Assembly (NCBI GenBank): GCA_041483895.1
Contig: JBGPGO010000004.1
Span: 96,001 to 160,000 of the forward strand
From: Fimbriimonadia bacterium
Lineage (GTDB): Bacteria > Armatimonadota > Fimbriimonadia > Fimbriimonadales > JABRVX01
Reading direction: 5' to 3'
Length of the DNA stretch: 64,000 bases
Shown: one piece after another, positions 39,903 through 62,667 of the stretch
Layout of the letters: each line of letters starts with the position of its first letter
Numbering within the stretch: position 1 is the first letter of the stretch
Notes under the pieces: model-generated
Database searches by the model: none
What the model was told of the DNA's origin: nothing
The model's input: only the letters and a program-made list of their open reading frames with translations
Made by a program: the position numbers and the translations under genes

Positions 39903-39931
39903 GGGAAGACATGATTACACATAGATTCTTA

Positions 39932-41332: not shown

Positions 41333-41343
41333 GTGAGCGAAGA

Positions 41344-43230: not shown

Positions 43231-43241
43231 AATGCTTCAGC

Positions 43242-43759: not shown

Positions 43760-43787
43760 CCTATCGATAATGGTTCTTTTCGATAGG
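43760..43787 (+). other. 28-bp dif-like recombination site 1
   Basis: CCTATCGATAA-TGGTTC-TTTTCGATAGG. Confidence 0.8.
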
Positions 43788-43827
43788 TCATCGCTCCAGT
43801 GAGCCCATTCTAGGCGTGGTCACCAAT

Positions 43828-43895
43828 TCTTGATGCAGTCTTGATACTTCCGGACTGATTGTTGATGCCTTCTTGTCGCAGTGCGACCGTACAAT
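43828..43895 (+). promoter_or_regulatory. Putative kdp promoter: KdpE/OmpR-type direct repeats and -10 box
   Basis: TCTTGAT at 43828 and 43839 (11-bp period), TGTTGAT at 43860, TACAAT at 43890. Confidence 0.55.
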
Positions 43896-43901
43896 TCAAT
43901 C

Positions 43902-43988
43902 ATGGAATTGGCCATCGTCGTCCTCATGATCATGCTCTTGGCCGCGTCTTACGGTCTGGTATGGCTGTGTGGCCGGTTGGAGGAATAG
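43902..43988 (+). CDS. Small hydrophobic kdp-associated peptide (28 aa)
   Basis: MELAIVVLMIMLLAASYGLVWLCGRLEE; supplies GGAGG RBS for kdpF. Confidence 0.65.
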   Translation: MELAIVVLMIMLLAASYGLVWLCGRLEE

Positions 43989-43990
43989 AC

Positions 43991-44071
43991 ATGTACTGGG
44001 TCGCCGGTATATTGACCTTGCTGCTGTTGGGCTATCTGATCGAAGCCATGCTGGAACCGGAGCGATTCTGA
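43991..44071 (+). CDS. kdpF: K+-transporting ATPase subunit F
   Basis: MYWVAGILTLLLLGYLIEAMLEPERF; TGA overlaps kdpA ATG. Confidence 0.85.
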   Translation: MYWVAGILTLLLLGYLIEAMLEPERF

Positions 44072-45768
44072 TGTCATCGGACTGGCTTCAAATCGCGATA
44101 TATGTCGTCCTGCTGATGATTCTCGCTGTGCCCCTTGGCGCCTATATGGCAAAGGTGCTCGAAGATCAGCGCACCTTTCTTTCTCCGGTGTTCGGCCCGA
44201 TCGAGCGGGTGCTCTATCGCCTGGGCGCAATCTCGCCGGAAGAGGGCATGGATTGGAAGACCTACGCGAAGGCTGTTCTTGCCTTCAGTTTCATCGGACT
44301 GGTGGTCGTCTACCTGCTGCAGCGGCTGCAGGGCAACCTGCCACTCAATCCCGCCAGACTTGGCCCCGTATCTCCTGACCTGTCCTTCAACACCGCGTCC
44401 AGCTTCGCAACGAATACGAATTGGCAGAGCTATGGGGGAGAAACGACCCTCAGCTATTTCACCCAGATGGTGGCGCTCACCGTTCAGAATTTCGTCAGCG
44501 CCGCAACCGGCATCGCGGTCTTGGCCGCGCTGATTCGCGGCATTCGCGGCAAGCAGATCCAGGCGATCGGCAACTTTTGGGCCGACCTAACGAGATCGAC
44601 AATTTACATCCTGTTACCGCTCGCAATACTCCTAAGCATTGTGTTCGTGTCCCAGGGGGTGGTTCAGACCTTCGATCCGTACGTCAAGGCGCTGACCCTG
44701 GAGGGCAAAGAGCAGGTGATTGCCGTCGGACCGGCCGCTTCCCAAATCGCCATCAAGCAACTAGGAACCAACGGCGGAGGGTTCTTCAATGTCAATTCGG
44801 CGCACCCATTTGAGAACCCAACACCTCTGACCAACCTTCTCAGCTGTCTCGCCATCCTATTGATCGGGGCGGGGGTCTGCCACACCTACGGGATCATGGT
44901 AAAGGATAGTCGACAGGGGTGGGCGCTCTTGACAGCGATGACAATACTCTTCCTACTCTTCGTCATCCCGTGCACCCGCGCGGAGCAGTCCGGCAATCCA
45001 CTGTTCGCCAAACTGGGCCTTGCCTCGACCGAGAACTGGGAGGGCAAAGAGGCGCGAATCGGAATCGGCAACTCTACCCTATGGGCGGTGGCCACTACCA
45101 GCGCGAGCAACGGTTCCGTCAACTCCATGCACGATTCGTACACCCCGTTGGGTGGCATGTTCCCAATGATCCTGATCCAGCTAGGGGAGGTGGTTTTTGG
45201 TGGCGTTGGGTCGGGCCTGTATGGAATGCTGATCTTCGCCGTAGTTGCCGTGTTCGTCGCGGGCTTGATGGTCGGACGTACGCCGGAATACCTCGGGAAG
45301 AAGATCGAGGCGTACGAGATGAAAATGGCGTCCGTGGTCATCCTAATCCCATGCGCGCTTGTGTTGCTCGGGACAGCCATCCCTCTCATGGCCGGCACGG
45401 GTCAATCCAGCATGGCAAATCCGGGCGCGCACGGTTTCAGCGAACTGCTCTACAACTATTCGAGCATGGGCAACAACAACGGTTCCGCCTTCGGCGGATT
45501 CAACGCGAACGTGCCGTTCCATAACATTCTGGGTGGAGTCGTCATGTGGATCAGCCGATTCTGGATCACCGTTCCCATTTTGGCCATAGCCGGATCGTTG
45601 GCAAGAAAGAAGACCACTCCTTCCGGTCCTGGCACCCTCGCAACACACTCGCCGCTTTTTATAACGCTCCTGATCTCGATTGTGTTGATCGTGGGAGCCT
45701 TGACCTTCATCCCTGCACTTGCGTTGGGTCCGATTGCGGAGCAGATAACTTATGCTACACAAAACTAA
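44071..45768 (+). CDS. kdpA: K+-transporting ATPase subunit A
   Basis: [40 protein letters not shown]. Confidence 0.97.
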
Positions 45769-47821
45769 GGCGACGTCACTCTTCGAACTGTCGATTGTAC
45801 GACGAGCGGTCGGCGACTCGTTCAGGAAGCTCAACCCACGGTTGCAACTTCGAAATCCGGTCATGTTCGTCGTATACATCGCCTCGATCCTGACGACAGT
45901 CCTGTGGCTCCAATCGCTGGGCGGAAGCGGAGAGGCTTCGCCAGCGTTCATCCTATGGATATCGATCTGGCTCTGGTTCACGGTCCTCTTTGCCAACTTC
46001 GCGGAGGCGGTCGCCGAAGGGCGCGGCAAGGCGCAAGCTGACTCACTTCGTCAGGCACGGAAGGGCCTTACCGCCAAGAAACTTGACAAGCCCAGTCGCG
46101 ATTCCGAATGGACCGCGGTGGATGCATCCACGCTTCGGCGCGGAGATATCGTTCTGGCTGAAGCAGGCGACTTCATTCCTGGAGATGGCGACGTGATCGA
46201 AGGCGCAGCTTCTATCGATGAGAGTGCAATCACAGGAGAATCGGCCCCAGTTATCCGAGAATCAGGCGGGGATCGCAGCGCGGTTACTGGCGGAACGAGA
46301 GTGTTAAGCGATTGGGTCATCGTTCGCACGTCCGCCAATCCTGGAGAAAGTTTTTTAGACCGCATGATCGGCATGGTGGAAGGAGCGAAGAGGCAGAAGA
46401 CTCCGAACGAAATCGCGCTAAGCATCTTGCTTGCGGCGATGACGATCATCTTCCTACTCGCATGCGCCACCCTGCTGCCATTCTCGATATACGCCGCGAA
46501 CTCCGCCGGTCAGGGGAGCCCAATAACGGTCACCACACTGGTCGCGCTGCTCGTCTGCCTGATCCCGACCACGATTGGTGGTCTCTTGAGCGCGATCGGG
46601 ATCGCGGGTATGGACCGGCTGATGCGTAAGAACGTCATCGCGATGTCCGGCCGATCCGTGGAGGCGGCGGGTGACGTGAATGTGCTGCTGCTCGACAAAA
46701 CCGGGACCATCACGCTCGGAAATCGCCACGCCGTCGCTTTCCGATCCGCACCAGGAGTCGAGGAAAAGGAACTCGCTGAGGCGGCGCAGATGTCGTCCCT
46801 AGCGGATGAGACGCCGGAGGGCCGCAGCATCGTGGTCCTTGCCAAGGAGCAGTTCGGGATTCGCGAGGTCGACATTCAGGGGCTCGAGGCTCACTTTCAA
46901 CCGTTTTCCGCCCAGACGCGAATGAGCGGTATCAGCACGAACGGCCGTGAAATTCGCAAAGGCGCGGCGGATGCGGTCTGGAAGTGGGTTGAGGAATTGG
47001 GTGGCCACATGCCTCATCAGGTGGAAGCGGATATAGAGGACATCGCCAAAGAGGGTGGCACGCCGCTGGTCGTCGCGGAAAGGTCTCGCATCCTGGGCGT
47101 CGTCCATCTCAAGGATATCATCAAGGGTGGCATCAAGGATCGGTTCGCCGACCTGCGAAACATGGGCATTCGGACCGTGATGATCACGGGTGATAATCCG
47201 CTTACGGCCGCGTCTATCGCAGCGGAGGCTGGTGTGGACGACTTCCTTGCAGAGGCGACACCGGAAGCCAAGCTCCAACTGATTCGGGAATATCAGCAGG
47301 GCGGCCAACTGGTTGCGATGACCGGGGACGGCACCAATGATGCCCCTGCGTTGGCGCAGGCGGATGTCGCGGTTGCGATGAATACAGGTACGCAGGCTGC
47401 CAAAGAGGCGGGCAACATGGTTGACCTGGATAGCAATCCGACGAAGCTGATCGAGATTGTCGAGACCGGCAAGCAGCTCTTGATGACGCGTGGCGCGCTG
47501 ACGACATTCAGCATCGCCAATGATGTCGCCAAGTATTTCGCGATCATTCCGGCTGCCTTTGCGGGCATCTATCCGAAACTCGTGTTGCTTAATGTCATGG
47601 GCCTGAAGACGCCGGAAAGCGCGATTCTGTCGGCGGTCATTTTCAACGCCCTCATAATCATCGCGCTCATTCCTCTGGCGCTACGAGGCGTGGCGTATCG
47701 GCCAGTCGGTGCGGAAGCCGTCCTGCGGCGCAATCTGCTGGTCTACGGCGTTGGGGGCCTCCTCATCCCCTTTATCGGGATTAAGGCGGTCGACCTCATT
47801 CTAGGAGTATTCTATCGATGA
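45752..47821 (+). CDS. kdpB: K+-transporting ATPase subunit B
   Basis: [23 protein letters not shown]. Confidence 0.98.
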
Positions 47822-48393
47822 AGACGTTGCGACAGGCGTTCATGCTATTCCTCGGCCTGACTATCCTAACCGGACTCGTCTATCCGCTCGCGATCACCCT
47901 GATCGCTAAGGGCGTTTTTCCAAGCCAAGCTGATGGGAGCCTCATTCGCCAAGGCGATCGGATCGTGGGATCGCGGCTGATCGGTCAGGAGTTCACGCAG
48001 TCCGGCTACTTTTGGGGCCGCCCCTCCGCGACGGCGGAGCACGCCTACAATGCGGCCGCCTCCAGTGGATCCAACCAAGGGCCGAACCATCCGGACTTCG
48101 AGAAGGCACTGCGCGAGCGCATCGATGTGCTCCGCCGAGCCGATCCTGGCAACCGAGCCAAAATCCCGACCGAACTGGTCACGGCATCCGGCAGTGGGCT
48201 CGACCCGCACATCAGCGTAGCTTCCGCCGAGTACCAGATCGGGCGAGTCTCGCGAGCACGGGGGATGTCCGATCAATTGCTGCGAAAGCTCATTGCGGAT
48301 CACACAGAGGGTCGCCAGTTCGGAGTTCTCGGTGAGCCTGTGGTCAACGTTTTGAAACTGAATCTCGCTCTTGATAAGATGGAGACGCGCTGA
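47818..48393 (+). CDS. kdpC: K+-transporting ATPase subunit C
   Basis: [39 protein letters not shown]. Confidence 0.96.
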
Positions 48394-49424
48394 TGATTGT
48401 TATTGCAATTGGACAGGGATTGTTAAGCATTACGGCGTATCTGGATGCGTATTATCAGGTTGAGCCCCGAACGGCGGAGTACGGAAACCTGATCCCGTTG
48501 CGCCAATTCGACACAAAGAACCGGGAATTCCGAGTTGCCGCGGCACAGGTGGACATCAACTACAAGCAGGGCAATTTCGCTGCCTTGGTTTCGCCCTGGA
48601 TCGGCGATAATTCAGACGTTTTGGAGCGAACAAATCCGAAGCATAACGACGTGCTCGATCATTTCGCGCAAGCCTACGTTACCGTCGAGCGCTTGGATGT
48701 TGGAAAGTTCTATTCCTGGTGCGGCTACGAAAGCCCTGAGTCAAGGCTCAGCGATTGCTACAGCCGTGGCCTTCTGTACACCCTCGCGGAGCCGGTGTGG
48801 CATTTTGGCCTGCGATATGCGTGGAATCTCAATCCAGGTTGGAACGGGAGCTTTTATCTCGTTCCTGCCTGGAACCAATCTGAGAGTCCAACAGAATCGG
48901 TGGGAGCCGCGGCGCAAATTCATAGGAAGTTTGGGTCCGCCACAGATGTCACGATTGGATACATGCGCAGTGAAGAAGGCGACAGCTCCCCAAATGCGTT
49001 CGGCGGATACGGTGGCATCGGATTCCCGAAGCCGGGGTCGTCAAGAGTCGGCATGTTCGATCTGATCGCCACGCATGTTGCTTCGAAATCGCTGCGGCTG
49101 GTCTTCAATGCCGACTACGGCATGGCTTCCGAGGGCGCAAATAGCGGCGTTTGGCTGGGAGCGGCGGCGTATGCAATCTATACGACCGCCGATAAATGGC
49201 AGATCGTCGGCCGCGCCGAGAGCTTCGCGGATCGGAGCGGCAATCGGGTCGGCGTACCGGCGTCTCTGTTCGAGGTCACTCTTACAGTGTCCCACAATAG
49301 CGACGGCATCATCAAGCGCCTGGAGATCCGCCACGACCGGGCCAACCATGGCCTGTTCGCCGGCGAAGACCATCAGACGACGGTGAGCCTCAGTCTGGGA
49401 GTGACATGGCAAGCGTTGCGATGA
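48393..49424 (+). CDS. Outer-membrane beta-barrel / porin (DUF1597/BBP2-like)
   Basis: YLDAYY, QAYV, GKF..GYE, YSR..L, RLEIRHD pattern; within kdp operon. Confidence 0.75.
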   Translation: MIVIAIGQGLLSITAYLDAYYQVEPRTAEYGNLIPLRQFDTKNREFRVAAAQVDINYKQGNFAALVSPWIGDNSDVLERTNPKHNDVLDHFAQAYVTVERLDVGKFYSWCGYESPESRLSDCYSRGLLYTLAEPVWHFGLRYAWNLNPGWNGSFYLVPAWNQSESPTESVGAAAQIHRKFGSATDVTIGYMRSEEGDSSPNAFGGYGGIGFPKPGSSRVGMFDLIATHVASKSLRLVFNADYGMASEGANSGVWLGAAAYAIYTTADKWQIVGRAESFADRSGNRVGVPASLFEVTLTVSHNSDGIIKRLEIRHDRANHGLFAGEDHQTTVSLSLGVTWQALR

Positions 49425-49843
49425 CTTCAGATCATTCGGCTCTTTTGGAACCCGTCAAGGTAATTACCTTTCGAATGCTATCCCATAACGCCATCATCGC
49501 CGTGCTCGATGCGGCCCGCAAGACCAGTACTGCGGTCGCGCTTGCGGTCATCGCCGATGACGCCGAAGCAATGCCGCTCAAACAGGCCTGGCGGGAACAT
49601 GTGGACCCCGTGGCGCCGGCGGTCCCGCTCTTCTTGCTGCACGCCAACCCCGACCGGGCCCAAGAGCGCACCGCGGAATATCTCGTGGAACTTCGGCATG
49701 TCTACCCTCGCCGGGAGATTGAAATCATCGTCGTCGCGAGCGGCATATCGAAAAACGAGGGCGTTGTTCCAAAATGGGTCAAGCAGCTTGACAAGGCTAT
49801 AGACGCACATGGAATTACCGACTACATTCTTCGCTTGGTGTAA
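49421..49843 (+). CDS. Hypothetical protein resembling the cytoplasmic C-terminal domain of APC/KimA-like K+ permeases
   Basis: LKQAW...PLFLL.ANP...EYL pattern; between porin and kdpD. Confidence 0.45.
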   Translation: MTSDHSALLEPVKVITFRMLSHNAIIAVLDAARKTSTAVALAVIADDAEAMPLKQAWREHVDPVAPAVPLFLLHANPDRAQERTAEYLVELRHVYPRREIEIIVVASGISKNEGVVPKWVKQLDKAIDAHGITDYILRLV

Positions 49844-49846
49844 CAA

Positions 49847-52513
49847 GTGACCGATAGAAGACCGGACCCGGATGCCCTGATTGTGGAACTTCGCACGAAA
49901 GAGGCGACGCCCGGTCATGGTCGTTTGAAGGTCTATTTGGGGATGGCGGCGGGTGTGGGGAAGACCTATGGAATGCTCGCCGACGCGCAAGAAGCAAGGC
50001 GGCGGGGACTGGATGTGGCGATCGGGTACCTAGAACCTCATGGCCGCCAGGCGACCGAAGCGCTCGCAGCAGGATTGGAACGCATCCTGCCGGTAGAGGT
50101 CGAGCATCGGGGCCTGATGCTCAAGGAATTGGATTTGGATGCGGCGCTTAAGCGACGGCCTGAATTGATGCTCGTCGACGAACTTGCCCACACCAATGCG
50201 CCGGGAATGCGGCACAAGAGGCGCTGGCAAGACGTGGAAGAGCTCTTGCGGAGCGGGATCGATGTCGCAACCACCGTCAACATCCAGCATTTGGAAAGCC
50301 TGCGAGATGTCGTCGCTCAGATTACCGGGATATTCGTCCAAGAGACAGTGCCTGACTCTCTCATCAATTCTGCCGATCAGATTGAGCTGGTGGACCTGCC
50401 GCCCGAAGACCTGATCCGACGGATCGAGGAAGGCAAGGTCTACGTTCCTGAGAAGGTCCAGATCGCGTTGGAAGGGTTTTTTAGGGCTGGAAACCTATCC
50501 GCACTAAGGGAGCTGGCTCTTCGCAGGACAGCGGAGCACGTCGACGAGCAAATGCGCGGATTCCGCCAAGCTGCCACGGAACCTTGGCACACGACAGAAC
50601 GGATTATCGTCTCCGTCGCTCCCAATCGGCTTGCTGCTCGCGTAGTCCGCGCCGCTGCCCGAATGGCGAACAGCATCCATGCCGATCTGATTGCTGTTTT
50701 CGTGGAAAGTCATCGCCAGGCGACCGTCACAACACGAGGCCGTGATCTGGCGGCCGACGCCTTGCGGTTAGCCGAGTCTCTCGGCGCGGAGACGGTGATC
50801 CTGAGCGGAGAGGATATTGTGCAGGAGTTGATTCGCCTGGCGAGAAAACGGAATGCTCCCACTATCGTCGTCGGCAAGCCGATCCGCCCGCGTTGGCGAG
50901 AGATCATCTTTGGCTCTGTTGTAGACGAACTGATCCGAGAAAGCGGCGACATCAATGTCTTCGTCATTACGGGAGCGGCAGAGACCGGAACGATTCTTCG
51001 CGTCGCACCACCGCCAAAGCCTGGTGATATCAAGACTTTCGGCGCGACAATCGGGATTGTCGGTTTCTGTACAATCCTGGTCGCCATGCTCTATCCCTAC
51101 TTCGCCCCGGCCAATCTCTCCATGATCTACCTGCTTGGCGTTACGATGACAGCCGCTCGTTATGGGCAGCGGGAAGCGGTGCTCGCCTCGCTGCTCAGCG
51201 TCTTCGCATTCGATGTCTTGTTCGTGCCGCCGAGATGGACGCTGGCCGTCACCGACGTGCAATATGTGATGCTGTTTGTCGTGATGCTGATTGTATCACT
51301 GCTGATCAGCACCCTAACGGCTCGCCTGAGAATGCAATCGCAAGCAGCTTCCGAAAGAGAACGCAGGACGGCCGCGCTCTATGATCTGAGCCGCCGCTTG
51401 GCCGCCACGCGGGGAAGAAAGGACTTGGGGCAGGCGACTGTCGAAAAAGTGCGGGAGCTGTTCGATTGCGATGCATGTGTCCTCTTAAGCGATTTGGAGT
51501 CGCATGAATTGCAGCCGATGCCGGGTTCGCTGACCGGATTTGAGCAGTTGGCGAACGAAACTTTGGTCGCCCGCTGGGTGGCCGATCACATGACGCGAGC
51601 CGGTCATGGAACCGATACTTTGGCCGGCGCCGCGGCAACCTATTTCCCATTGGTTGCCGATGAAAACAGTGTCGGTGTTCTTGCAGTCGCCCTCAACGAA
51701 GCTCTTCTGCAAGACCAGGCCTCTATCCACCTGCTCGAGACTTTCGCCAGCCAACTCGCGACCGCAATCCATCGGGCGAATTTGGCAAAGCACTCTCATG
51801 TCGCAGCGCTGCAAGCGGAAACCGAACGGCTTCGGTCCAGCCTGCTCAGCAGCGTATCCCATGACCTTCGGACGCCGCTGGCCGTGATCGAAGGATCCGC
51901 GGAATCTCTCATGTCGAGCGAAAATACGGACGATAAGCAGCGAGGTCTGGCCGCGGCGATTCGAGATGAGGCACGGCGCCTCGGTCGGTTGGTCCGAAAT
52001 CTATTGGATATGACCCGAATGGACTCGGGGGCGGTCGAATTGAATCGGGATTGGCAGTCCCTCGAGGAGTTGGTCGGGGCGGCCCTCAGTCGTACGGAGC
52101 CGGTCCTGGGAGACCGCAATGTAATCGTCCATCTTGCGGAAGAATTGCCGTTGGTGTATGTGGATGGTGTCCTGTTGGAACAGTTGCTCGTGAACCTGTT
52201 GGAAAACGCGAGCCGGTACACGCCTCCGGGAACTAGAATCACGATTTCCGCGGAAAGCCATGAATCGACAATACGGGTCACAGTCGCCAATAATGGACCT
52301 CCACTTGCCTCGGGTGAAGAGGATGCGATCTTCCAGAGGTTTCATCGCAAGGCGACCGACGGCGATCGGGGATTCGGGCTCGGATTGGCCATCTGCCGCG
52401 CGATTGCGGAAGCGCACGGTGGGACGATCATTGGTCGGAACGTTGAGACCGGTGTCGAGTTTGTCATCACGTTGCCGTTGCCGAAGGCTCAGCCGGAAGT
52501 ACGAGATGAGTGA
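49847..52513 (+). CDS. kdpD: Sensor histidine kinase KdpD
   Basis: GMAAGVGKT, DELAHTN, USP domain, four TM helices, SHDLRTPL, GLGLAIC. Confidence 0.97.
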   Translation: MTDRRPDPDALIVELRTKEATPGHGRLKVYLGMAAGVGKTYGMLADAQEARRRGLDVAIGYLEPHGRQATEALAAGLERILPVEVEHRGLMLKELDLDAALKRRPELMLVDELAHTNAPGMRHKRRWQDVEELLRSGIDVATTVNIQHLESLRDVVAQITGIFVQETVPDSLINSADQIELVDLPPEDLIRRIEEGKVYVPEKVQIALEGFFRAGNLSALRELALRRTAEHVDEQMRGFRQAATEPWHTTERIIVSVAPNRLAARVVRAAARMANSIHADLIAVFVESHRQATVTTRGRDLAADALRLAESLGAETVILSGEDIVQELIRLARKRNAPTIVVGKPIRPRWREIIFGSVVDELIRESGDINVFVITGAAETGTILRVAPPPKPGDIKTFGATIGIVGFCTILVAMLYPYFAPANLSMIYLLGVTMTAARYGQREAVLASLLSVFAFDVLFVPPRWTLAVTDVQYVMLFVVMLIVSLLISTLTARLRMQSQAASERERRTAALYDLSRRLAATRGRKDLGQATVEKVRELFDCDACVLLSDLESHELQPMPGSLTGFEQLANETLVARWVADHMTRAGHGTDTLAGAAATYFPLVADENSVGVLAVALNEALLQDQASIHLLETFASQLATAIHRANLAKHSHVAALQAETERLRSSLLSSVSHDLRTPLAVIEGSAESLMSSENTDDKQRGLAAAIRDEARRLGRLVRNLLDMTRMDSGAVELNRDWQSLEELVGAALSRTEPVLGDRNVIVHLAEELPLVYVDGVLLEQLLVNLLENASRYTPPGTRITISAESHESTIRVTVANNGPPLASGEEDAIFQRFHRKATDGDRGFGLGLAICRAIAEAHGGTIIGRNVETGVEFVITLPLPKAQPEVRDE

Positions 52514-53198: not shown

Positions 53199-53230
53199 AC
53201 AGTTTGGATGAGGTCGGCGCGAGGCGCTAC

Positions 53231-53258
53231 GGTATCGATAATGGCGATTTTCGATAGG
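53231..53258 (+). other. 28-bp dif-like recombination site 2
   Basis: GGTATCGATAA-TGGCGA-TTTTCGATAGG. Confidence 0.8.
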
Positions 53259-53306
53259 AAATTAGTTCAAGTGACGCGACAAGAGTCTCCGCAATTTCGT
53301 AATTTG

Positions 53307-54748: not shown

Positions 54749-55696
54749 TTACGCCAGCTCTGATAATAGCCGTGTGGCCCGACCCTGAAGGTCCTCCCGC
54801 GCGTCGTCGTAGATCATCAGCGTCTCAAGCTTGGAATGACGGCTGAGCTTCTGTGCGCCGCGCACGTCGCCGTTGGTGGCGTGCAGGTAGGCGGTGATGC
54901 TCGTGTGCCGCCACTTATGCGGGCTGAAGTTCTGGATACCGGCCTTCTTGGCATAATACTTCACCATGAACGCCAGGCCAACACCAGTGATGCCGGACAG
55001 TTGGCCATCGAGGTCCCGTGTGCAGGAGAGGAACAGTGCCGGTCGGTCGTCGTTCCTGCTAGCCATGTAATCGCCGATCGCTTCGATGGCCTTGTCGCTC
55101 AGCGTCATCAGCACCTTCTGAGTCCCTGTGCCTTTGCCACGGACGGCTAGCGTCTTCGCATCAGGGTCGAAGTCGCCCCTCGTCAGATTGCAGATCTCCG
55201 CCCGTCGCAGCGCCAGTTCCCAAAACAGCCGAAGGATCGCCGCGTCTCTCTTTCCCTTGACGGTGTTGGAATTGGGAAGCATCAGCATCGCGGCCGCCGC
55301 GTCCTTGTCGACGCCCCTTGTGTCGCGGTACTGCATCGTCTTCTCTCCCGGTACCAGCCCTTGCGGATTGACTTCCGTCAGCCCAAGCTGTCGAGCAACT
55401 TGTAGAAGCGAACGGATCGCCGTCAGTCTACGGTTCAGCGTCACCTCGGCCACGCCTTGTTCAATCTGCTGCATCTTGAAGGTAAGCATCGCCCGAACGA
55501 CGCCGGGCGTGTCCAGTTTGAAGAACGCGCCGACCGTTTGCGGCGTTGGCTCGCTCCTGGCCACGACCCGGAAGAACAGCCGTAGATCCCGCTGGTAGGC
55601 CAGCCTCGTGACCTCGCTCCTTTTGGACCGAAGAAGAAACTCCAGCGCGTCTGGAGCCGCTGGGGCTACTTCTGTAACCTTGAGTTCAATTGCCAT
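54749..55696 (-). CDS. Tyrosine recombinase (XerC/Cre-like, no arm-binding domain)
   Basis: TRLAY, TLNRRL; catalytic R (LRRAE), K (RGKG), HxxR (HKWRH), H (SRH), Y (MIY); GGGAGG RBS. Confidence 0.93.
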   Translation of the reverse strand: MAIELKVTEVAPAAPDALEFLLRSKRSEVTRLAYQRDLRLFFRVVARSEPTPQTVGAFFKLDTPGVVRAMLTFKMQQIEQGVAEVTLNRRLTAIRSLLQVARQLGLTEVNPQGLVPGEKTMQYRDTRGVDKDAAAAMLMLPNSNTVKGKRDAAILRLFWELALRRAEICNLTRGDFDPDAKTLAVRGKGTGTQKVLMTLSDKAIEAIGDYMASRNDDRPALFLSCTRDLDGQLSGITGVGLAFMVKYYAKKAGIQNFSPHKWRHTSITAYLHATNGDVRGAQKLSRHSKLETLMIYDDAREDLQGRATRLLSELA

Positions 55697-55713
55697 GGTT
55701 CTTGCCTCCCTTT

Positions 55714-55741
55714 GGTATCGAAAAGGGCCATTATCGATACC
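55714..55741 (-). other. 28-bp dif-like recombination site 3
   Basis: Minus strand GGTATCGATAA-TGGCCC-TTTTCGATACC, 17 bp upstream of recombinase ATG. Confidence 0.82.
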
Positions 55742-55855
55742 AACACGACATGTACCAGGAGGGGGCGGATACATCCAGTCCCGCGCTCTTGAAGGCTAGC
55801 GGTTTCAGTGTAAAATGGATTGTAGTAGCCGATAGTAACGGCTTGGAGGAAGTCA

Positions 55856-56563
55856 GTGGAGTTGGTTCTACGGTCAAGGGGCTCGGGATATTCTCTTCGC
55901 AGATTCATTCTCTACGTTCTCTTCGCATCAACGAGAGACGATTTTGAATTGCGCCGCCAACCAAGACCCAGCGAGGCCGGCCGCAACTGGAAGGCAGCCA
56001 CAGACCTGGAACTTGTTGCAGGGCTCCGGTCGGGGGAACACGGCGCTAGCGCCGAGTTCGTCCGGCGGTTCGAGAAGCTCGTAACATACATTGCCTACGG
56101 CCACACTTATGAGAAGGAGGAGGTCGAGGATCTCGTACAAGATGTTTGGGTGGTCCTCTCGCGCGGCAACTGGCGGACGGTCTGCGCTTGGGAAAACAAG
56201 TGTCCACTCTCAAGCTACGTGTCCGTGATCACAACCCGCGTGGTTCGCGCCCGGATGCGACGTCGACCTAACGAAGTCTCAATCGAGGAGCTGGACGCTG
56301 AACCCGTGGATTCCACCGTCATCGTTGAACCGCTTCTGACGTCACAGCAGGCAGAGACGATTCAGTTTTGCATCCGGCAACTTTCGGCGAAGCAGCAGCT
56401 CGTGCTAAAGCTACGAATCGTCGATGGAGCGGACCATATCGAGATCGGTCGGTTGCTTGGCATTTCGCCGACGACATCAAGGAAACGACTGTTTGACGCA
56501 CTTCGGAAGCTGGCAAAACTGATCCCCGAAGTCGATCCGAGTTTGATGGAGCTGGAGATATAA
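55856..56563 (+). CDS. ECF sigma-70 family sigma factor (true start probably further downstream, e.g. TTG 55949)
   Basis: EDLVQDVW region 2; LSAKQQLVLKL..EIGRLLGIS..TSRKRL region 4. Confidence 0.88.
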   Translation: MELVLRSRGSGYSLRRFILYVLFASTRDDFELRRQPRPSEAGRNWKAATDLELVAGLRSGEHGASAEFVRRFEKLVTYIAYGHTYEKEEVEDLVQDVWVVLSRGNWRTVCAWENKCPLSSYVSVITTRVVRARMRRRPNEVSIEELDAEPVDSTVIVEPLLTSQQAETIQFCIRQLSAKQQLVLKLRIVDGADHIEIGRLLGISPTTSRKRLFDALRKLAKLIPEVDPSLMELEI

Positions 56564-57127
56564 ATGCGCTTTCCTTGGAGCAAACGGGAAGACCTTGACG
56601 CGCTGGAGCGCATCATCAGTGGCGAGACTTCGGAGCAAGAGGCCGCGGAATTCGCCGTAACCATCGCCCGATCCGAAAAAGCTAGGCGTGCGATTGTTCC
56701 ATTGGAGAAGGCCGGCAGATTGGTTTCGGTGGCCGGTTCTGACATCTCTCCGTCCGAACATCTTAGCAACAATGAGCTGGCCGAGTGTATTGCCGGTGAC
56801 GTGTCGCCGATTGTCAAAATGCGAAGGGAGGCTCATTTGGCCTCTTGCGATGAGTGCCGGGCGGTGTTCGTGCGAGCGACGGCGGCCTACCGCGTGTATG
56901 CGGAGAATGTGCGCCCGCCGTTCCGCCGCGCCATCCGCGGCATATTGCTACCCCTTAGCCTGGGGATCGTGCCCGGGATCTTCTTCGGCATCTATCTGCT
57001 TGGTTATTTTCTATCGCCCTTCGATCCCCCTTGGCTCGCCCCACTTGTGAACAGTCCCTGGATCGTAGTCTTCGGGCTGGCATCAGCCGTAGTCGCGGTG
57101 ATGATCCTTCTTAGGAAACGTTGGTGA
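56564..57127 (+). CDS. Zinc-finger (HxxxCxxC) membrane anti-sigma factor
   Basis: AHLASCDECR; two C-terminal TM helices; abuts ECF gene. Confidence 0.8.
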   Translation: MRFPWSKREDLDALERIISGETSEQEAAEFAVTIARSEKARRAIVPLEKAGRLVSVAGSDISPSEHLSNNELAECIAGDVSPIVKMRREAHLASCDECRAVFVRATAAYRVYAENVRPPFRRAIRGILLPLSLGIVPGIFFGIYLLGYFLSPFDPPWLAPLVNSPWIVVFGLASAVVAVMILLRKRW

Positions 57128-57657
57128 AGTGGATCGCGCTATGCGTCGGCGCCGTTCTTGCGAGCGTCATGTGGGTGACTGTCACGAGGCTCGCGCTCAA
57201 CGCCTCCCATTTCCAGGACCTGGAACCGATGTCCGCACTCCAGATACGGTCCGCGCCGTATCGTCAAAGATCCGCAATGCGATATGGCTTCGGCGGAATG
57301 CTCCCTCGGCCCGCAGGCGTCCAAGATCGCATCCGTCTCACGTTCGAGAGCGAAGGAAGGTTTGAGGTTCAGATCCTGTTCCGCGACGGTGAGGGCGACA
57401 TGGTCTTCCCAGGATTGGTCGACGAGATGACCGGGCGTTTCATGTGCGGCCCACACCTCGCCGCCGTCGAGTTCCCCTACCTCAACGCAGTGCGCGGCAT
57501 GCTGCACGGTCCGGCGCTGGTGAGTGGAAGGCCCGCCGTTTACGTCGAGGTGGAAGGCCTTCGGTGGGTGGCCGAACGGAACGACTATGCGCCCGTCGCC
57601 GGCTTCCGCTGGCAAGGCATGCTTCCGTCGGAGGGAGGGCCGTACGGTGGCCGCTAG
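57124..57657 (+). CDS. Membrane-anchored hypothetical protein, paralog 1 of 4
   Basis: N-terminal TM; IRSAPY, VDEMTGRF, GMLHGPALVSGRPAVYVE, FRWQG. Confidence 0.7.
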   Translation: MKWIALCVGAVLASVMWVTVTRLALNASHFQDLEPMSALQIRSAPYRQRSAMRYGFGGMLPRPAGVQDRIRLTFESEGRFEVQILFRDGEGDMVFPGLVDEMTGRFMCGPHLAAVEFPYLNAVRGMLHGPALVSGRPAVYVEVEGLRWVAERNDYAPVAGFRWQGMLPSEGGPYGGR

Positions 57658-58180
57658 AATCCCTATCTTGATATCCGTAGTCGTCTCGTTGTTGGTGGCG
57701 ATCTGCTTCGTCGTCTTTGCACGAGCGAGGATCGAGACATTCAAGTATGCCGGCCTTCCCGTAATGTCCGAGGCTGCGTTGAGACGCGCTCCGTTCGATT
57801 GGCTGCTCTTCGTCCGTCATTCCGCCTACCTAAAGGAGTTCGCAGGGCGTAATCTTGTACAGGTGACGGAATACGAAGGCAAGGTGGGCGTAATGCCCGG
57901 CATTGCGGATGGGCAGGGCTTGCCCTTGATAGTAGGCCCGATAGATCAGAAGACCGGCCGTTTCCGCGCCGACCTCTCTCCCGCAAGCGGCAAGTATCCC
58001 TACTTCGATCGAGTGGAAGGGGTGCTCCACGGCCCAGGGCTGGTGAACGGTGCTCCGTGCGTTTATGTCGAAATGCGCTCGGAGTGGGCGGGGATCTACG
58101 AGAGAGCCCATCCACACTTCCGCTCGATCGGCTGGTCCGGGGTCTTTCGGAGTTGCCGCGAGGTCTCCGTCATGCCATGA
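57647..58180 (+). CDS. Membrane-anchored hypothetical protein, paralog 2 of 4
   Basis: LRRAPF, IDQKTGRF, GVLHGPGLVNGAPCVYVE, IGWSG. Confidence 0.7.
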   Translation: MAARIPILISVVVSLLVAICFVVFARARIETFKYAGLPVMSEAALRRAPFDWLLFVRHSAYLKEFAGRNLVQVTEYEGKVGVMPGIADGQGLPLIVGPIDQKTGRFRADLSPASGKYPYFDRVEGVLHGPGLVNGAPCVYVEMRSEWAGIYERAHPHFRSIGWSGVFRSCREVSVMP

Positions 58181-58683
58181 TCGGCAAGTTGCTGGCTCTC
58201 GGTCTTGCTTGCTGCTTGACGGCTACGATGCTCGTGATCGCCGTCCATTCGTTCGTCGTGCACCCTTATCTCGGCAAGCTTGCCACCAAGTCGGAGGGCG
58301 AGGTGAGGCGCGCCCCGTTCATCCTCACCGACCTGAAACGAACGCCTTTCGTTGGCGTCCTCCACCGACCGGATGGCACTCCTGATATAGTTAGTATACG
58401 CTGGACGCTCTATGCCTCCGTGAACGTGTCGATACGATTCGGACATGGCGAGGGCGATGTGACGTTTGCCGGGATGATCGATCCGGAGACAGGCGAGTTC
58501 CGTTGCGGCCCGCACGCCGCCGCGATGAGCTTCCCCCATTTCTATCACTTGGTCGGCAGGTTGCGCGGACCGGGCTTGGTTGCTGGCAAACCGATTGTGT
58601 ATTTCGAAGGGAAAGGCCTTCCCGTGGAGGGTCCAGTTCGCCCCGGATATTCATGGAAGGGCTTTCTGACGTGGAGGCCGTAA
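58177..58683 (+). CDS. Membrane-anchored hypothetical protein, paralog 3 of 4
   Basis: VRRAPF, IDPETGEF, GRLRGPGLVAGKPIVYFE, YSWKG. Confidence 0.7.
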   Translation: MIGKLLALGLACCLTATMLVIAVHSFVVHPYLGKLATKSEGEVRRAPFILTDLKRTPFVGVLHRPDGTPDIVSIRWTLYASVNVSIRFGHGEGDVTFAGMIDPETGEFRCGPHAAAMSFPHFYHLVGRLRGPGLVAGKPIVYFEGKGLPVEGPVRPGYSWKGFLTWRP

Positions 58684-59213
58684 TCCGCCCCGCGCGGCTG
58701 TTGATCGCTTTGGTCCTGTTCCTGACTGGAGCGGGATTGATAGCCGCCGCGCTCGTTGTGGCATTCCACGGCTATGCATCGGCGACGCGATTCGAAGGCC
58801 TTCGAACAAGGACGATCACGCAACTTCGATACGCCGTGTTTTCGCCACGACTGGCTGGGAGGTGGCATTGGCGCGGGGTCTGGCCGGGGCGCGAGATCAG
58901 GAAGGCCGACGTAACGATCGCCGGCGATAATACAATCACATTCCGCCTGACTCCTACCGAGGACATTCAGTTGCCGCAGTGTAGTGGGATTCTGTCGTCT
59001 GATGGCAGCTTTGACATCGGTCCGATTCTGGCGAAGATCGGTTCCCTTCGCTTTGACGCGATCGTGGGCCGGGTCCGTGGACCGGCGTTGGTCGACGGTC
59101 AGCCGCAGATCTGGCTTGAGGCGCAGACGGTCCTGAAACGCCGCCCGGTGTTCGCTGGGCGGGTTAGATTGTATCGGTGGTCGGGAACACTCGCCGCAAC
59201 GGGTCGGACCTAG
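58671..59213 (+). CDS. Membrane-anchored hypothetical protein, paralog 4 of 4
   Basis: LRYAVF, GRVRGPALVDGQPQIWLE, YRWSG. Confidence 0.65.
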   Translation: MEAVIRPARLLIALVLFLTGAGLIAAALVVAFHGYASATRFEGLRTRTITQLRYAVFSPRLAGRWHWRGVWPGREIRKADVTIAGDNTITFRLTPTEDIQLPQCSGILSSDGSFDIGPILAKIGSLRFDAIVGRVRGPALVDGQPQIWLEAQTVLKRRPVFAGRVRLYRWSGTLAATGRT

Positions 59214-59360
59214 CGCACAAAATCATCGGTGCGTCGATAAGTAACGCTGGGCGCTTGGCGAGGCACCTATTGAGATGGAACAAGCTAGTTCGGGAACGAT
59301 TCCACTACAGGCACGCCGTTGTAGAGCAGGATATCCGAACCGCTAAACAGGAGGTTCCGG

Positions 59361-62300
59361 ATGTCATCGAGCCGATTTTTGACCGTCATTGTGGGTATCG
59401 CCGCGACTGCGTCTGTGGTCGCGCATGACTTCGTAGACGAATTCAACGGCAATTCGGTGGATACTTCCCTGTGGACCGTTGACACAGGTCAGGGTGTCGT
59501 GTCAGTCGCGAACGGTTTCCTGTCCTTATCTGCACCATCCAGCGCCTCGGGGTTCCCAGCGCTGACCTGCGCGACCAACCCGTTTGCCGCCGGTAGTTGG
59601 ACATTCGAGATCAGAATGCGCTACACAAACCTACACGGTGGGCATGGGGACGGCGTCGAACTGTTTCGAAGCCCAGACGGTGACGGAAGTCCCTACAAAA
59701 CGATCATCTGGCAGGACCTCAACAATTTGGCCTTCTTTTGTTCGAACACGCTCATGTTCGTGATCTCGGGAGGGGATACGGAGTGGCATACGTATCGGCT
59801 CGTATACACGGTTGAACAGAATGTGTTCGCGGCCTATGTCGATGAAGTGAAGCGGGGAGAAGTCCCAGCGGAGGCGCAATGCGACACGATAAGGATCGGG
59901 AATCCGAGGTCCGGATGCTGTAACGGCTGGAACTCCTTTGACGTCGACTATGTTAGGATCACTCCCGCCGAAGATACGTGGCACGTCAACCCGGCCAATG
60001 GCCATCTGTACAAGCGGACGGATACCATGAACTGGAAGGACGCCAGGCGGCAGGCCGTGCTGTGGGGTGGGCAATTGGTCACAATCAACGATCAAGCGGA
60101 GCAGGACTGGCTCCTCCAGACCTTTGGCGACAGCGAAGACCTGTTCATCGGCCTGCGCGATGTCAAGCCGCCGCTCCAGAAGTGGCGGTGGGAGTCTGGC
60201 GAGGCGGTCAGCTACACGAATTGGAACACTGGAGAACCCACAGATACAGTTGCCGAGCCGGTTGTCATGCTTAATAATGGATTAGCCGGCAAATGGAACA
60301 ACGTGCCGATGAGCTTTTTGGCGCGCGGCATCGTCGAGCGGACGCCACCTCAAGTTCAGCGACTGGCGGTGGGTTCCGACGGCGCGACCGTCACCTCTGA
60401 CCCGCTGGAGCCGGGCAAGCGATACGTTATTGAGGCTTCTGGAAGCTGGCAGATCGCTCTTGACGGCCGACTGGCCGACGCGAACTATTGGCGAGATCAG
60501 GACGGAGTTTGGCGGGAAAAGAGCGCTCCTGGACTCCTGGTAAACAATCAGAATGTCGCTTGGATGGGGTCCCCCGAAGGCGTATATTATGCGACGCACA
60601 CCTACTCGCCATCTCACGTCTATCGGTATATCGTCGTCGGCAACGGCGAGCCCATATCGTTCCGCGTGAACGATACACAGTACGACGACAACTTCGGCGG
60701 GTTGCAGGTAAGGATCTATTCGCCCGTGCCGACAACGGGTACACAGGCTGACGCGCTATGGCCGTTGCACTACGTCGATCGTAACAACACGGGCTTTTTT
60801 CCATGGGCCATTGGGCCAGATGTTCCTCAGGTACGCTGGTCGCTGCCTAACGTCGGTTTGGCCGTCCTAGTCTCAAGCAATGGTAATGTTTATTGCCTTT
60901 CAAATGCAGCACTACAATGCTTTAGCCCGGATGGCTTACTCCTTTCTCAGGCGACACTGCCAGGCAGCCAAATAAGCATTGGCGGCGTTATCGGAGCGGA
61001 CGGCTCGGTCTTCCTGCTGGCACACCAATACATCGCCGCCTTTGATGAGAATCTCAACCTGCGCTGGCAATATTCAGATGGGGGCTTGTGCGGCCCTGTT
61101 GTAGACGACGCCGGCAACCTGTACTATGGTGGCTGGTTCGGCGGGGGTCAACTTTATTCACGAACCCCCTCAGGCCAGCTAAGCTGGTCCCTTCCTTTGT
61201 CTGAAGAGATGTTCCCTCGCATGGTCCTCGGCCCAGATAATCTGATCTATTTGAAGGCTCTTCATTCGCCCCGAATCTACGTGTTCTCCATCGACGGCCA
61301 GTCTCTAGGCAATTTCGACGGGCGCGGAAACGGGGGCATGACGCCGGTTTTCGATAGCGATGGCACGTTCTACACGACGACCGCCGACGGCATGCTCCAT
61401 TGCTTTAACCCGGACCGGACGCCTCGCTGGGAACAGAATATCGGAGCGACGGTTGATACCACCCTTGCTCTTGCGCCCGACCACAGAGTCGTTAGCCAGA
61501 CGTTTTCGAGTGGATTACTCCTAAGCTTCTTGTTCGATGGAACTCAACTGTGGTCCACGCCCCAGGACGCCTCCGCCTATCAACATATCCGGCTCGACGC
61601 GCAGGGAACGGCAACGAACGCGAACTTTGCGAATCGTATCTGGTCCGTAGACTTCATGGGTAGCCCGATGTGGAACCAACAGTTCGCAGGAACAGATATG
61701 ATCGCATCGCACGTTATTGGACCCGACGGCACGATCTACGCGACTGCGGGAGGGCTCCTGGGCACACTCTACGCCATCGGCCCAGGCTCGCCAGTGCTCC
61801 AGGAAACCTTCCTAACCATTGATAACACCACAATTAAACGCGGTGAGACTGCGGACCTCGCCGCTCGACTGGCATTGGGTAGAAACTCCGGCGGGGCGAG
61901 AAATCGCACCGTCCGGTTCTACATAGATCACGTGGTATTAGGCCAGGCGGTGACCGACTGGCGCGGTATCGCAACGTTGCCCTATGCCGCGCCGAGCAAT
62001 ATGGCGATCGGACCACATGTCTTGACCGCGAACTTCGATGGCGATACGAATTTTTGGAACTGCGAAGGCGACGGCACACTATACGTTCGCCGCCCCGTCA
62101 GCCAAGTGGAAGGCCAGATCTTCTTGGAGAACTACGAACCCGACCCGACTGGGCAGTCCATCACCTTCGAATTGCTCGACGGCGGCGGACAAACGTTGGC
62201 CGACACCGTAGCCATCCTGGATTCCACGGGCCATTATTCGTTTGAAATGACATACGAAGGACCTTGTTCACTCCGGGCGAAAGGCAGCCACTGGCTCAGC

Positions 62301-62531
62301 TCAGTCGTCTCAGGCCTCAATCTGTCCGAATCAGCGCCGGCCATCGCCAACATGCAACTGCCAAATGGTGACGCCGATGGCGACAATCTAGTAAGTCTCA
62401 TTGACCTGAACCGGATTCTCATTGAGTTCACATCGACTGCATCTACCGACACCGATCTGGATGGATCTGGAAAAGTGGATTTGCCTGACCTAAATATCGT
62501 CTTCTTGAACTTTGCAAGGGCCGGTCAATGA
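59361..62531 (+). CDS. Large secreted modular protein: ConA/LamG-like, C-type lectin, PQQ-type beta-propeller, Ig-like and dockerin-like domains
   Basis: DTEWHTYRL; NGHLY..WKDA..LVTINDQAEQDWL..YTNWNTGEP..WNN; repeated IGxDGTIY/LxW blades; GDADGDNLVSLIDL..DLDGSGKVDLPDL. Confidence 0.85.
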   Translation: MSSSRFLTVIVGIAATASVVAHDFVDEFNGNSVDTSLWTVDTGQGVVSVANGFLSLSAPSSASGFPALTCATNPFAAGSWTFEIRMRYTNLHGGHGDGVELFRSPDGDGSPYKTIIWQDLNNLAFFCSNTLMFVISGGDTEWHTYRLVYTVEQNVFAAYVDEVKRGEVPAEAQCDTIRIGNPRSGCCNGWNSFDVDYVRITPAEDTWHVNPANGHLYKRTDTMNWKDARRQAVLWGGQLVTINDQAEQDWLLQTFGDSEDLFIGLRDVKPPLQKWRWESGEAVSYTNWNTGEPTDTVAEPVVMLNNGLAGKWNNVPMSFLARGIVERTPPQVQRLAVGSDGATVTSDPLEPGKRYVIEASGSWQIALDGRLADANYWRDQDGVWREKSAPGLLVNNQNVAWMGSPEGVYYATHTYSPSHVYRYIVVGNGEPISFRVNDTQYDDNFGGLQVRIYSPVPTTGTQADALWPLHYVDRNNTGFFPWAIGPDVPQVRWSLPNVGLAVLVSSNGNVYCLSNAALQCFSPDGLLLSQATLPGSQISIGGVIGADGSVFLLAHQYIAAFDENLNLRWQYSDGGLCGPVVDDAGNLYYGGWFGGGQLYSRTPSGQLSWSLPLSEEMFPRMVLGPDNLIYLKALHSPRIYVFSIDGQSLGNFDGRGNGGMTPVFDSDGTFYTTTADGMLHCFNPDRTPRWEQNIGATVDTTLALAPDHRVVSQTFSSGLLLSFLFDGTQLWSTPQDASAYQHIRLDAQGTATNANFANRIWSVDFMGSPMWNQQFAGTDMIASHVIGPDGTIYATAGGLLGTLYAIGPGSPVLQETFLTIDNTTIKRGETADLAARLALGRNSGGARNRTVRFYIDHVVLGQAVTDWRGIATLPYAAPSNMAIGPHVLTANFDGDTNFWNCEGDGTLYVRRPVSQVEGQIFLENYEPDPTGQSITFELLDGGGQTLADTVAILDSTGHYSFEMTYEGPCSLRAKGSHWLSSVVSGLNLSESAPAIANMQLPNGDADGDNLVSLIDLNRILIEFTSTASTDTDLDGSGKVDLPDLNIVFLNFARAGQ

Positions 62532-62639
62532 ATCAACGGCCTCGCATTAGGAGCGAAACCATGCGTTTGCTGGTGCGAGTCGTTGATGGAAGCGCATTGA
62601 GACATTAGCGGGATCGCGCCACCAACCCTGATCCCCGCA

Positions 62640-62667
62640 GCTATCGATAACGTCCATTATCGATAGG
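62640..62667 (-). other. 28-bp dif-like recombination site 4
   Basis: Minus strand CCTATCGATAA-TGGACG-TTATCGATAGC. Confidence 0.8.

Follow-up and report, generated by a model that had tools for sequence, protein, structure and literature searches.

What has brought near-palindromic sites of the dif type to the borders of whole operons, on either side of a tyrosine recombinase gene? The question is raised by a 64-kb stretch of an Armatimonadota genome (the window, G000:C4:96001-160000, where G000 is this assembly of 3.95 Mb in 43 contigs with a GC content of 0.579; labels such as C4 denote contigs, and positions without one refer to the window). Four 28-bp sites there delimit a kdp gene cluster, a recombinase gene with one companion, and a block headed by an extracytoplasmic function (ECF) sigma factor gene. 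Judged by sequence comparison, these are genuine tyrosine-recombinase-type sites tied to the family of this dedicated recombinase. That they are targets of the adjacent enzyme and have shaped the content of the modules is, on the same comparisons, reasonably likely.

Scanning the window with the pattern TATCGATAA-N6-TTNTCGATA, with up to two mismatches allowed, returned exactly four matches (43762-43785, 53233-53256, 55716-55739, and 62642-62665), the cores of 28-mers starting at 43760, 53231, 55714, and 62640; 100 dinucleotide-preserving shuffles of the window gave a mean of 0.00 and a maximum of 0. The 9-mer TATCGATAA by itself occurs five times in the window (0.25 expected), and all five occurrences lie inside the four sites. 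Orientation can be set by the asymmetric TGG on the left side of the 6-bp central region.

Site 1 (43760..43787, plus strand; CCTATCGATAA-TGGTTC-TTTTCGATAGG) is of class TTC and lies next to the island backbone, as do class TTC sites at C7:79099, C11:123284, and C11:133051. Site 2 (53231..53258, plus strand; GGTATCGATAA-TGGCGA-TTTTCGATAGG) is of class CGA and begins 32 bp past the kdpE stop codon (53198); class CGA always follows the recombinase unit on its downstream side, in the opposite orientation to the site 3 type, and recurs at C6:16969, C7:69640, and C11:126078, each time downstream of a recombinase copy. Site 3 (55714..55741, minus strand; GGTATCGATAA-TGGCCC-TTTTCGATACC), of class CCC, is separated by 17 bp from the start codon of the recombinase (ATG at 55696) and is immediately followed on that side by a ribosome-binding site, GGGAGG. 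Site 4 (62640..62667, minus strand; CCTATCGATAA-TGGACG-TTATCGATAGC), whose 9-bp arms are perfect inverted repeats, is of class ACG, which recurs at C1:186802, C7:55701, and C7:61751. The window therefore holds four different central regions (TTC, CGA, CCC, and ACG) in the orientation order plus, plus, minus, minus, with sites 1 and 2, and sites 3 and 4, as direct repeats. A reading of the window made from its sequence alone (the sequence-only reading) had already placed four 11-6-11 palindromes at these coordinates and orientations, with the same 32-bp and 17-bp distances; the distances agree with the open reading frames (ORFs), and Pfam bears out the gene content that it gave between site pairs (kdp genes, recombinase plus one hypothetical gene, and an ECF/lectin block).

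The recombinase gene (54749..55696, minus strand) encodes a protein of 315 amino acids with a simple core-binding plus catalytic (CB + CAT) architecture (Phage_integrase/SAM_1; Pfam PF00589 and PF02899), the PF00589 match scoring 66.3 bits against a cut-off of 27.1. Aligned to XerD (1a0p), it has the complete catalytic set (R150, K188, H260, R263, H287, and Y296), and all six residues are invariant in 18 of 18 aligned homologues. Its nearest curated families are XerC, XerA, XerD, and XerS, each scoring far below the NCBIfam cut-off (104.9 bits against 335, 97.3 against 220, 86.5 against 329.6, and 58.9 against 267, respectively). Since the host already has a canonical Xer pair, on C14 and C13, the island recombinase is an extra enzyme. 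Three full-length copies (91% identical) and five fragments occur in G000, spread over at least six loci. Synonymous divergence (dS) among the three intact paralogues is 0.63-0.92, with a nonsynonymous-to-synonymous ratio (dN/dS) of 0.06-0.085; by these values, they are old paralogues under strong purifying selection.

Enzyme and site are linked most directly at the start of the gene. An identical class CCC 28-mer (28/28) precedes four recombinase starts (C1:195116, C4:151716, C7:51268, and C7:66525), and the distance from this proximal site to the ATG is always 17 bp. The genes behind these sites have diverged at 43-53% of synonymous sites, so that full identity of the site means strong constraint, central region included. 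The recombinase units are homologous at the DNA level over some 1.0 kb (84-85%), between the stop codon and a point about 40 bp past the site. The conserved flank of site 3 (55742..55785, minus strand) contains a GGTACA(T/G)G motif that is invariant in 7 of 7 aligned sequences, which include two same-family genomes (G001 and G002) and a hybrid site at C11:100276; it is a candidate recombinase promoter or accessory sequence. A sigma-70 scan gave one match only, which points into the ECF gene, and the flank fits the sigma-54 consensus poorly.

Arm sequence follows the enzyme beyond this genome. Homologues in G001 (72% identity) and G002 (about 60%, the copy being broken) are preceded at the same position by GGTCACGATAA-TGGnnn-TTTGCGTGACC, in which both arms have changed symmetrically. 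Sites of the TATCGATAA type were not found in the G001 or G002 genome; the GGTCACGATAA type has three copies in G001 and two in G002, where the pair (10523/11635) flanks the recombinase gene in inverted orientation. In a wider search, 475 of 523 candidate stretches were confirmed as homologues and 80 loci were kept, 77 of them with enough upstream sequence. Distant homologues, abundant in cyanobacteria, were found also in Chthonomonadaceae, Ammoniphilus, and others; chromosomes, plasmids, and predicted viral contigs all carry them. A palindrome with at least 9/11 matches lies within 120 bp upstream of the start in 35 of the 77, compared with 4/69, 7/65, and 6/58 in control windows 1-3 kb further upstream, and CG[AGT][AT]A inner arms are common to 27 of the 35. 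The sequence-only reading had named homologous recombinases without such sites as evidence that would count against it; G001, G002, and these 35 distant homologues have them.

The upstream site is not universal in the family. Predicted viral contigs yielded 28 relatives, and 5 of the 19 loci examined have an upstream palindrome of at least 9/11, two of these being dif-like; among other Armatimonadota loci, one of eight (L127) has a clear dif-like palindrome near the gene. Paralogues within one Calothrix assembly (L041 and L063) differ in their arms, and four Pseudanabaena loci (L058, L061, L093, and L107) have the palindrome TGAGACTYATT-N8-AATGAGWCTCA, with an 8-bp spacer, 4-7 bp before the ATG. 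From such comparisons, the family seems to vary in spacer length as well as in arm sequence. An exact-site scan of metagenome contigs returned four loci, all from other organisms (three with GC 0.43-0.46 and one with 0.58) and hence unsuited to comparing strains; at one of them, two sites spaced by 6.4 kb accompany a recombinase fragment of 39% identity.

Copy number sets G000 apart from most other carriers in its phylum. There the recombinase family is patchy, with 21 carriers among 301 genomes (15 of 159 genera); leaving out G000, which has seven matches, 18 of the remaining 20 have a single copy. On this distribution, the many-site state in G000 is derived, and by analogy with known modules of one gene and one site, the basic function of recombinase plus site is probably the resolution or maintenance of a replicon or element.

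Across G000 there are 25 sites at up to two mismatches and 29 at up to three, graded as 25 strong and two to four decayed; 27 were analyzed, leaving out a weak match (C12:64964) and a half site (C9:80614). The half site, in which the left arm and a TGGCGA spacer are intact and the right arm is missing, may be the scar of an aberrant event. The 27 are distributed as four on C4, seven in 28 kb on C7, six in 33 kb on C11, three plus two on C2, two plus two on C1, and one on C6. All are 28 bp long with 11-6-11 geometry, and their arms are inverted copies of one 9-mer with at most one position different; such near-identical arms imply a single recombinase. Outer dinucleotide, spacer, and arm variant are linked as whole-site types (CC-TTC-GG, GG-CGA-GG, GG-CCC-CC, and CC-ACG-GC or -GG), where constancy of the spacer within a class is unusable as evidence because the classes are defined by it. 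By rough ORF calls, every site is intergenic, and 23 of the 27 lie within 30 kb of one of the eight recombinase copies or fragments. Gene context is convergent for nine, tandem for 12, and divergent for six; the nine between convergent genes argue against a promoter operator. Scattering upstream of unrelated promoters, which the sequence-only reading had counted as contrary evidence, is thus not what the genome presents.

Arrays in one orientation occur on C11 (6/6 sites) and C2 (3/3), and some single cargo genes, remote from any backbone, have orphan sites on either side. One example is a GH42-like gene (C2:250475-253518); in a search for the corresponding empty site, its tricorn-like neighbor was found to have orthologues of 64-66% in G001 and G002, and synteny ends there. 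The site clusters lie in accessory regions beside tRNA genes (tRNA-Asn on C7, tRNA-Arg on C11, tRNA-Lys on C2, and tRNA-His on C1), and for the C4 cluster a tRNA-Glu gene lies 10 kb beyond the window. Three island regions share a backbone of a ParB_N plus N6_N4 methylase gene and small ORFs; the C7 and C11 islands also have a phage-type integrase, and C11 has DUF3854. An identical 35-bp stretch just past the 3' ends of tRNA-Lys (C2:61053-61087) and tRNA-Glu (C4:170224-170258), at island edges, may be an attachment-site remnant.

The site classes keep their order between islands. Read with the backbone at the right, C4 (flipped) and C7 run from restriction or defense genes through ACG(+), a large secreted protein with ECF sigma factor, CCC(+), and the recombinase with an ORF termed X, then through CGA(-), cargo, (ACA(-), cargo,) and TTC(-) to the backbone; C1 and C11 show this order in part only. 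At equivalent sites the cargo differs from island to island. C4 has kdp; C11 has a CHAT-NB-ARC (NLR-like) gene; C7 has OsmC, acyl-CoA dehydrogenase, phosphonate-binding protein, and MetE genes, plus DUF6259 and phosphoesterase. Other slots hold RND efflux plus MFS, TPR-CHAT, type I restriction, and a Pycsar-like cyclase. Modules span 1.9-11 kb, and their GC content (0.534-0.641) covers too mild a range around that of the genome to serve for dating cargo or tracing its source. Proximal cargo is read away from the recombinase gene in 3/4 copies, and arrays also extend downstream of the gene.

Past recombination has left traces at several sites. At three TTC-type sites on C11 (112237, 123284, and 133051), the left flanks, all of them backbone ends, resemble one another (0.60-0.78 identity over 40 bp), and the right flanks do not (0.17-0.25). 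At the hybrid site C11:100276, a CCC-type left flank and arm (0.55-0.70) are followed by the spacer of class CGA and by unrelated sequence on the right (0.15-0.23). Both a recombinase fragment and an ORF face this site, the arrangement expected if a CCC and a CGA site had once recombined by inversion. On C7, a tRNA-Asn gene (34107-34182) lies beside a phage-type integrase (L007, L008), and a perfect 45-bp copy of its 3' end is found 27 kb away at 61526-61570. Such copies are the usual mark of integrase-mediated insertion; this one is inverted, not direct, and lies inside a segment bracketed by inverted ACG and CCC site pairs. A 100-bp repeat of 77% identity relates C7:61437-61532 to the island end at C7:81698-81793. 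Taken from the sequences as they stand, one-sided flank homology, the hybrid site, and the inverted tRNA end point to past recombination.

How might such a system work? Two recombinase monomers would bind the near-identical 9-11-bp arms, with strand exchange across the 6-bp central region. If the enzyme acts as in single-recombinase Xer systems, a dimer would occupy each site, a tetramer would synapse two, and exchange would occur at the edges of the central region. The basic form of the family is the recombinase gene with one adjacent site, as in XerS/difSL, and it probably serves to resolve or maintain a replicon. In G000 this module is carried by tRNA-linked islands, and its site, now at about 25 copies, marks the junctions of backbone, recombinase unit, and multi-gene cargo blocks (1.9-11 kb). 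Blocks have probably been joined, replaced, and occasionally inverted by recombination at the sites, the direction of these events being likewise conjectural. A circle with one site would on insertion leave direct repeats around a block, which fits the C11 and C2 arrays, and inverted site pairs could give inversions. Partners would mostly be of the same central-region class, so that islands could keep ordered sites yet differ in cargo. This is suggested by the whole-site types, which keep their order between islands, and it would make 1x2 and 3x4 excision in the window unlikely and exchange between islands or with incoming DNA likelier. The position of the proximal site between flank and ribosome-binding site probably lets the recombinase limit its own expression.

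A number of observations weigh against recombinase targets that have shaped module content. Tyrosine recombinases usually need homologous central regions, and by that rule the window's sites, with four different ones, should not recombine together. The hybrid site implies that a CCC and a CGA site once recombined, which strict class specificity would not allow, and the inverted tRNA-end copy could have another cause in a second related island end nearby. Some turnover bypasses the sites: X differs between islands and no site lies between it and the recombinase, and no motif that could explain the replacement of X was found behind the recombinase stop codon in seven copies. Of the eight recombinase copies, five are broken, and some sites have decayed; with paralogues this old, the system may be largely fossil. 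Expansion of the sites in copy number rests on one assembly. Elsewhere a single site per genome is the default of the family: 24 of 24 cyanobacterial loci have one convincing site within 10 kb, and in 5 of 5 cyanobacterial genomes (5.6-8.9 Mb) there is just one copy of the palindrome TATCGAAAA-N6-TTTTCGATA, some 25-30 bp in front of the recombinase homologue (L041, L048, L066, L070, and L104).

Signs of present activity were looked for in sediment runs and not found. Of 22 sediment runs containing the stretch, four were examined, as contigs only at about 5x, too shallow for rare forms. Sites 1, 2, and 4 are spanned by contigs in the reference arrangement, and at site 3, a repeat, the contigs end; no alternative junctions, circles, or inversions at the four sites were seen at that depth, including the 1x2 and 3x4 circles and the 2x3 inversion to which the sequence-only reading would lead. 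A joint of 55269 to 43578, in one contig, is not an alternative form; it matches a paralogous C11 junction between a recombinase fragment and a DUF6941-like gene.

A further step can be envisioned, in which the central-region classes are functional addresses and the islands carry out a natural recombinase-mediated cassette exchange, multi-slot and with operon-sized cargo. A block between two different classes would not be deletable in cis and could be swapped with a block between the same classes elsewhere, in another island copy or an incoming element, by one island-borne Xer-like enzyme. Class order conserved across islands at a recombinase dS of 0.6-0.9, different cargo between the same class pairs, and the linkage of outer dinucleotide, spacer, and arm variant as site alleles are the reasons for entertaining it. 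Palindromic arms with heterospecific spacers are used for just such exchange in engineered Cre/lox systems, where ordered different spacers would hold a block in cis and allow matched-pair exchange. Unlike that engineered case, the islands here include a hybrid site, which argues against strict spacer specificity and with it against addresses. Functional addressing is therefore an unlikely extension, if a coherent one.

Among the rivals, the one that survives best is that the recombinase and its site serve maintenance only, as a dimer-resolution and self-repression module of the islands or of their excised circles, with the extra sites left over from repeated island integration, duplication, and decay and forming passive landmarks while cargo turns over otherwise. 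Uniqueness of the site in the cyanobacterial genomes speaks for this, as do homologues on plasmids and predicted viral contigs, the replacement of X without a site, a phage-type integrase of the islands' own by tRNA genes, and three partial backbone ends in tandem on C11. The same gene-plus-site module is seen in XerS and XerH (Castillo 2017, PMC5357621). Against it, decayed leftovers would not stay identical at 28/28 positions while the adjacent genes diverge at 43-53% of synonymous sites. The sites also fall precisely at cargo borders, with one-sided homology, and orphan sites surround single cargo genes far from the backbone. Maintenance alone is doubtful as a full account.

Much less probable is an inversion switch, in which inverted pairs flip DNA to phase-vary the recombinase, the ECF-sigma operon, or restriction genes. 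Inverted sites do flank the recombinase here (2/3), on C7 (66525/69640), and in G002; C7 has same-class inverted pairs (ACG 55701/61751 and CCC 51268/66525); and the traces of past inversion described above would fit. Sites 2 and 3 differ, however, in central region; the inverted junction was not found in the contigs of the four runs; most arrays are direct, as in the six sites of C11; and no promoter or gene is split by a site, the one sigma-70-like match pointing into the ECF gene.

Slimmer still is the case for a single integron-like platform, the form in which the sequence-only reading had cast the locus: the window recombinase would excise 1x2 and 3x4 circles and capture cargo at the gene-proximal site. 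As in integrons, a primary site adjoins the recombinase gene and arrays can run in one orientation; adjacent cargo is transcribed outward in 3/4 copies, though arrays also extend downstream of the gene, and sites 1/2 and 3/4 are direct repeats. Central regions nevertheless differ within each pair (TTC and CGA; CCC and ACG), and no circle junction was seen in the run contigs. Integron attC sites are long imperfect palindromes of 57-141 nt, recombined as folded single strands. The sites here are instead 28-bp palindromes of a double-strand type around multi-gene blocks with their own regulators, and with E values up to 1e-5 admitted, neither IntI model (TIGR02249 or NF011946) matched the recombinase of the window; its homologue P0010 reaches 34.8 bits, where the cut-off is 265. 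The integron likeness thus fails on enzyme and site alike, and the sequence-only reading is borne out in part. Self-containment fails as well, since at least six loci with three intact and five broken recombinase copies are involved and islands carry a second, phage-type integrase.

Non-recombination palindromes, as the operator of a dimeric regulator or a hairpin of the repetitive extragenic palindrome (REP) or terminator kind common in islands, are hardly credible: the palindrome could fold into an 8-10-bp stem, several copies follow stop codons, and symmetric arm co-variation would preserve a hairpin too, but no T-run follows the window sites, 23/27 sites are grouped near recombinase copies, the location in front of the recombinase gene is conserved over a wide family, arm changes track recombinase divergence, and the 11-6-11 form with ATAA/TTAT-like inner arms is that of dif sites (PMC5357621).

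If the sites are indeed targets of the adjacent recombinase, which known systems do they resemble? With dif modules, IMEX arrays, and integrons the system has in common that cargo is bounded by short recombinase sites. The closest match in layout is XerS/difSL of streptococci and lactococci. Like XerH/difH (Helicobacter, Campylobacter) and archaeal XerA/dif, it has one simple recombinase, two similar arms, and a site beside the gene, and for XerS/difSL and XerH/difH the gene and its adjacent site are treated as one genetic module (Castillo 2017, PMC5357621). The system here departs from these modules in its 25-29 sites, in the several island copies of the gene, in a host with a canonical Xer pair besides, and in equivalog scores below cut-off.

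Acinetobacter pdif modules offer a second likeness, proposed by the sequence-only reading, which holds for 28-bp 11-6-11 sites bounding multi-gene accessory modules whose content varies in related contexts and not for arms, arrays, or enzyme. In a pdif site one arm is for XerC and a different one for XerD, recombination relies on host XerCD, and neighboring sites point in alternating directions. Here, by contrast, the arms are near-identical, arrays are direct, central regions fall into classes, and a dedicated recombinase has its own site. The host Xer pair may act on the island sites as well, with which the sequences are compatible. IMEX (the CTX and TLC elements and the gonococcal island) likewise show how serial integration at a dif-like site can give tandem blocks and hybrid sites. 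Those elements have no recombinase of their own and exploit host XerCD at the single chromosomal dif (PMC5357621); here the enzyme is encoded on the islands, and there are many sites at dispersed positions.

Cyanobacteria supply the nearest large set of homologues (40-48% identity in the 80 loci kept), which recalls the separate "Cyan" subgroup found in place of the absent Xer in Oscillatoriophycideae (Smyshlyaev 2021, PMC8138268). No site is described for that subgroup in the passages of Smyshlyaev 2021 that deal with it; the supplements may list its members. In a literature search, with most subscription journals and supplements outside its scope, neither the site of this family nor arrays of this kind were found described.

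The remaining genes of the window can be placed on this framework. The island backbone ends at 38191..43646 (plus strand; Pfam) with an MT-A70 methylase (38191-39159), a ParB_N plus N6_N4 DNA methylase (39500-41332), small ORFs (41296-43230), and DUF6941 (43242-43646); this end always abuts a TTC-class site, and paralogous backbones lie on C7 (80275-81567) and C11 (133159-135817). In a backbone-type small ORF by site C11:112237, an IS21-family element is inserted (C11:112729-115231; L010/L011), with a Mu-transposase C-terminal domain, an IstB ATPase, and perfect 41-bp terminal inverted repeats.

Cargo module 1 (43969..53198, plus strand; 9.4 kb from site 1 to site 2) contains, by Pfam, kdpA, kdpB, kdpC, a BBP2 porin gene, a 145-amino-acid ORF, kdpD, and kdpE. 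The BBP2/OmpL-like beta-barrel porin gene and the 145-amino-acid ORF, between kdpC and kdpD (48393-49843), are an unusual insertion in a kdpFABC-DE cluster. KdpD was detected in 3/10 same-order genomes, at 37-42% identity, and in neither G001 nor G002, which are of the same family, a patchy occurrence by which the kdp module looks accessory. Next comes X (53307..54422, minus strand; 371 amino acids, GC 0.509), which has no match in Pfam, NCBIfam, or PADLOC; it is not conserved between islands, and unrelated ORFs hold the equivalent position elsewhere. One of these, behind a recombinase fragment adjoining tRNA-Lys, is a 1313-amino-acid WD40 protein gene with many tandem repeats of about 126 bp, some 75% identical (C2:58513-60251; L004).

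Cargo module 2 (55856..62531, plus strand; 6.9 kb from site 3 to site 4; Pfam) opens with the ECF sigma factor gene (55856-56563), continues with small ORFs, and ends with a secreted C-type-lectin/Big_3_5 (Ig-like) protein of 1056 amino acids (59361-62531). Its C1 counterpart has an ECF sigma factor, a zf-HC2 anti-sigma factor, and a 1926-amino-acid CARDB/beta-helix protein, and its C7 counterpart a malectin protein. Beyond site 4 lies the 3' part of a type I restriction hsdR gene (62695..64000, minus strand; Pfam), in an operon that extends past the window with DUF4268, hsdS, and hsdM. Defense genes are also dense around two sites at C1:178011-197589 (L003), which include a type IIG restriction-methylase (PADLOC, 1077 bits), an 1800-amino-acid DruE-like helicase that has an MrfA Zn domain, and a SIR2-SAVED protein whose gene immediately follows a recombinase gene cut short at residue 156.

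What might such a system mean for bacterial gene exchange? Kono 2011 (PMC3025954) reports that dif in cyanobacteria could not be predicted by profile searches, and the unique palindrome upstream of the cyanobacterial homologues would be a candidate for the dimer-resolution site that was missed there. If the sites are targets that have shaped the modules, they would constitute a route by which whole operons (a K+ pump with its regulators, RND efflux, restriction, and NLR-like defense) move in and out of islands, using neither integron integrases nor host XerCD, by means of one dedicated Xer-like enzyme and a family of 28-bp sites. The notion of "dif modules" would then extend from Acinetobacter plasmids to the chromosomal islands of a poorly studied phylum, and a compact recombinase with several natural site variants would be available for testing as a tool.

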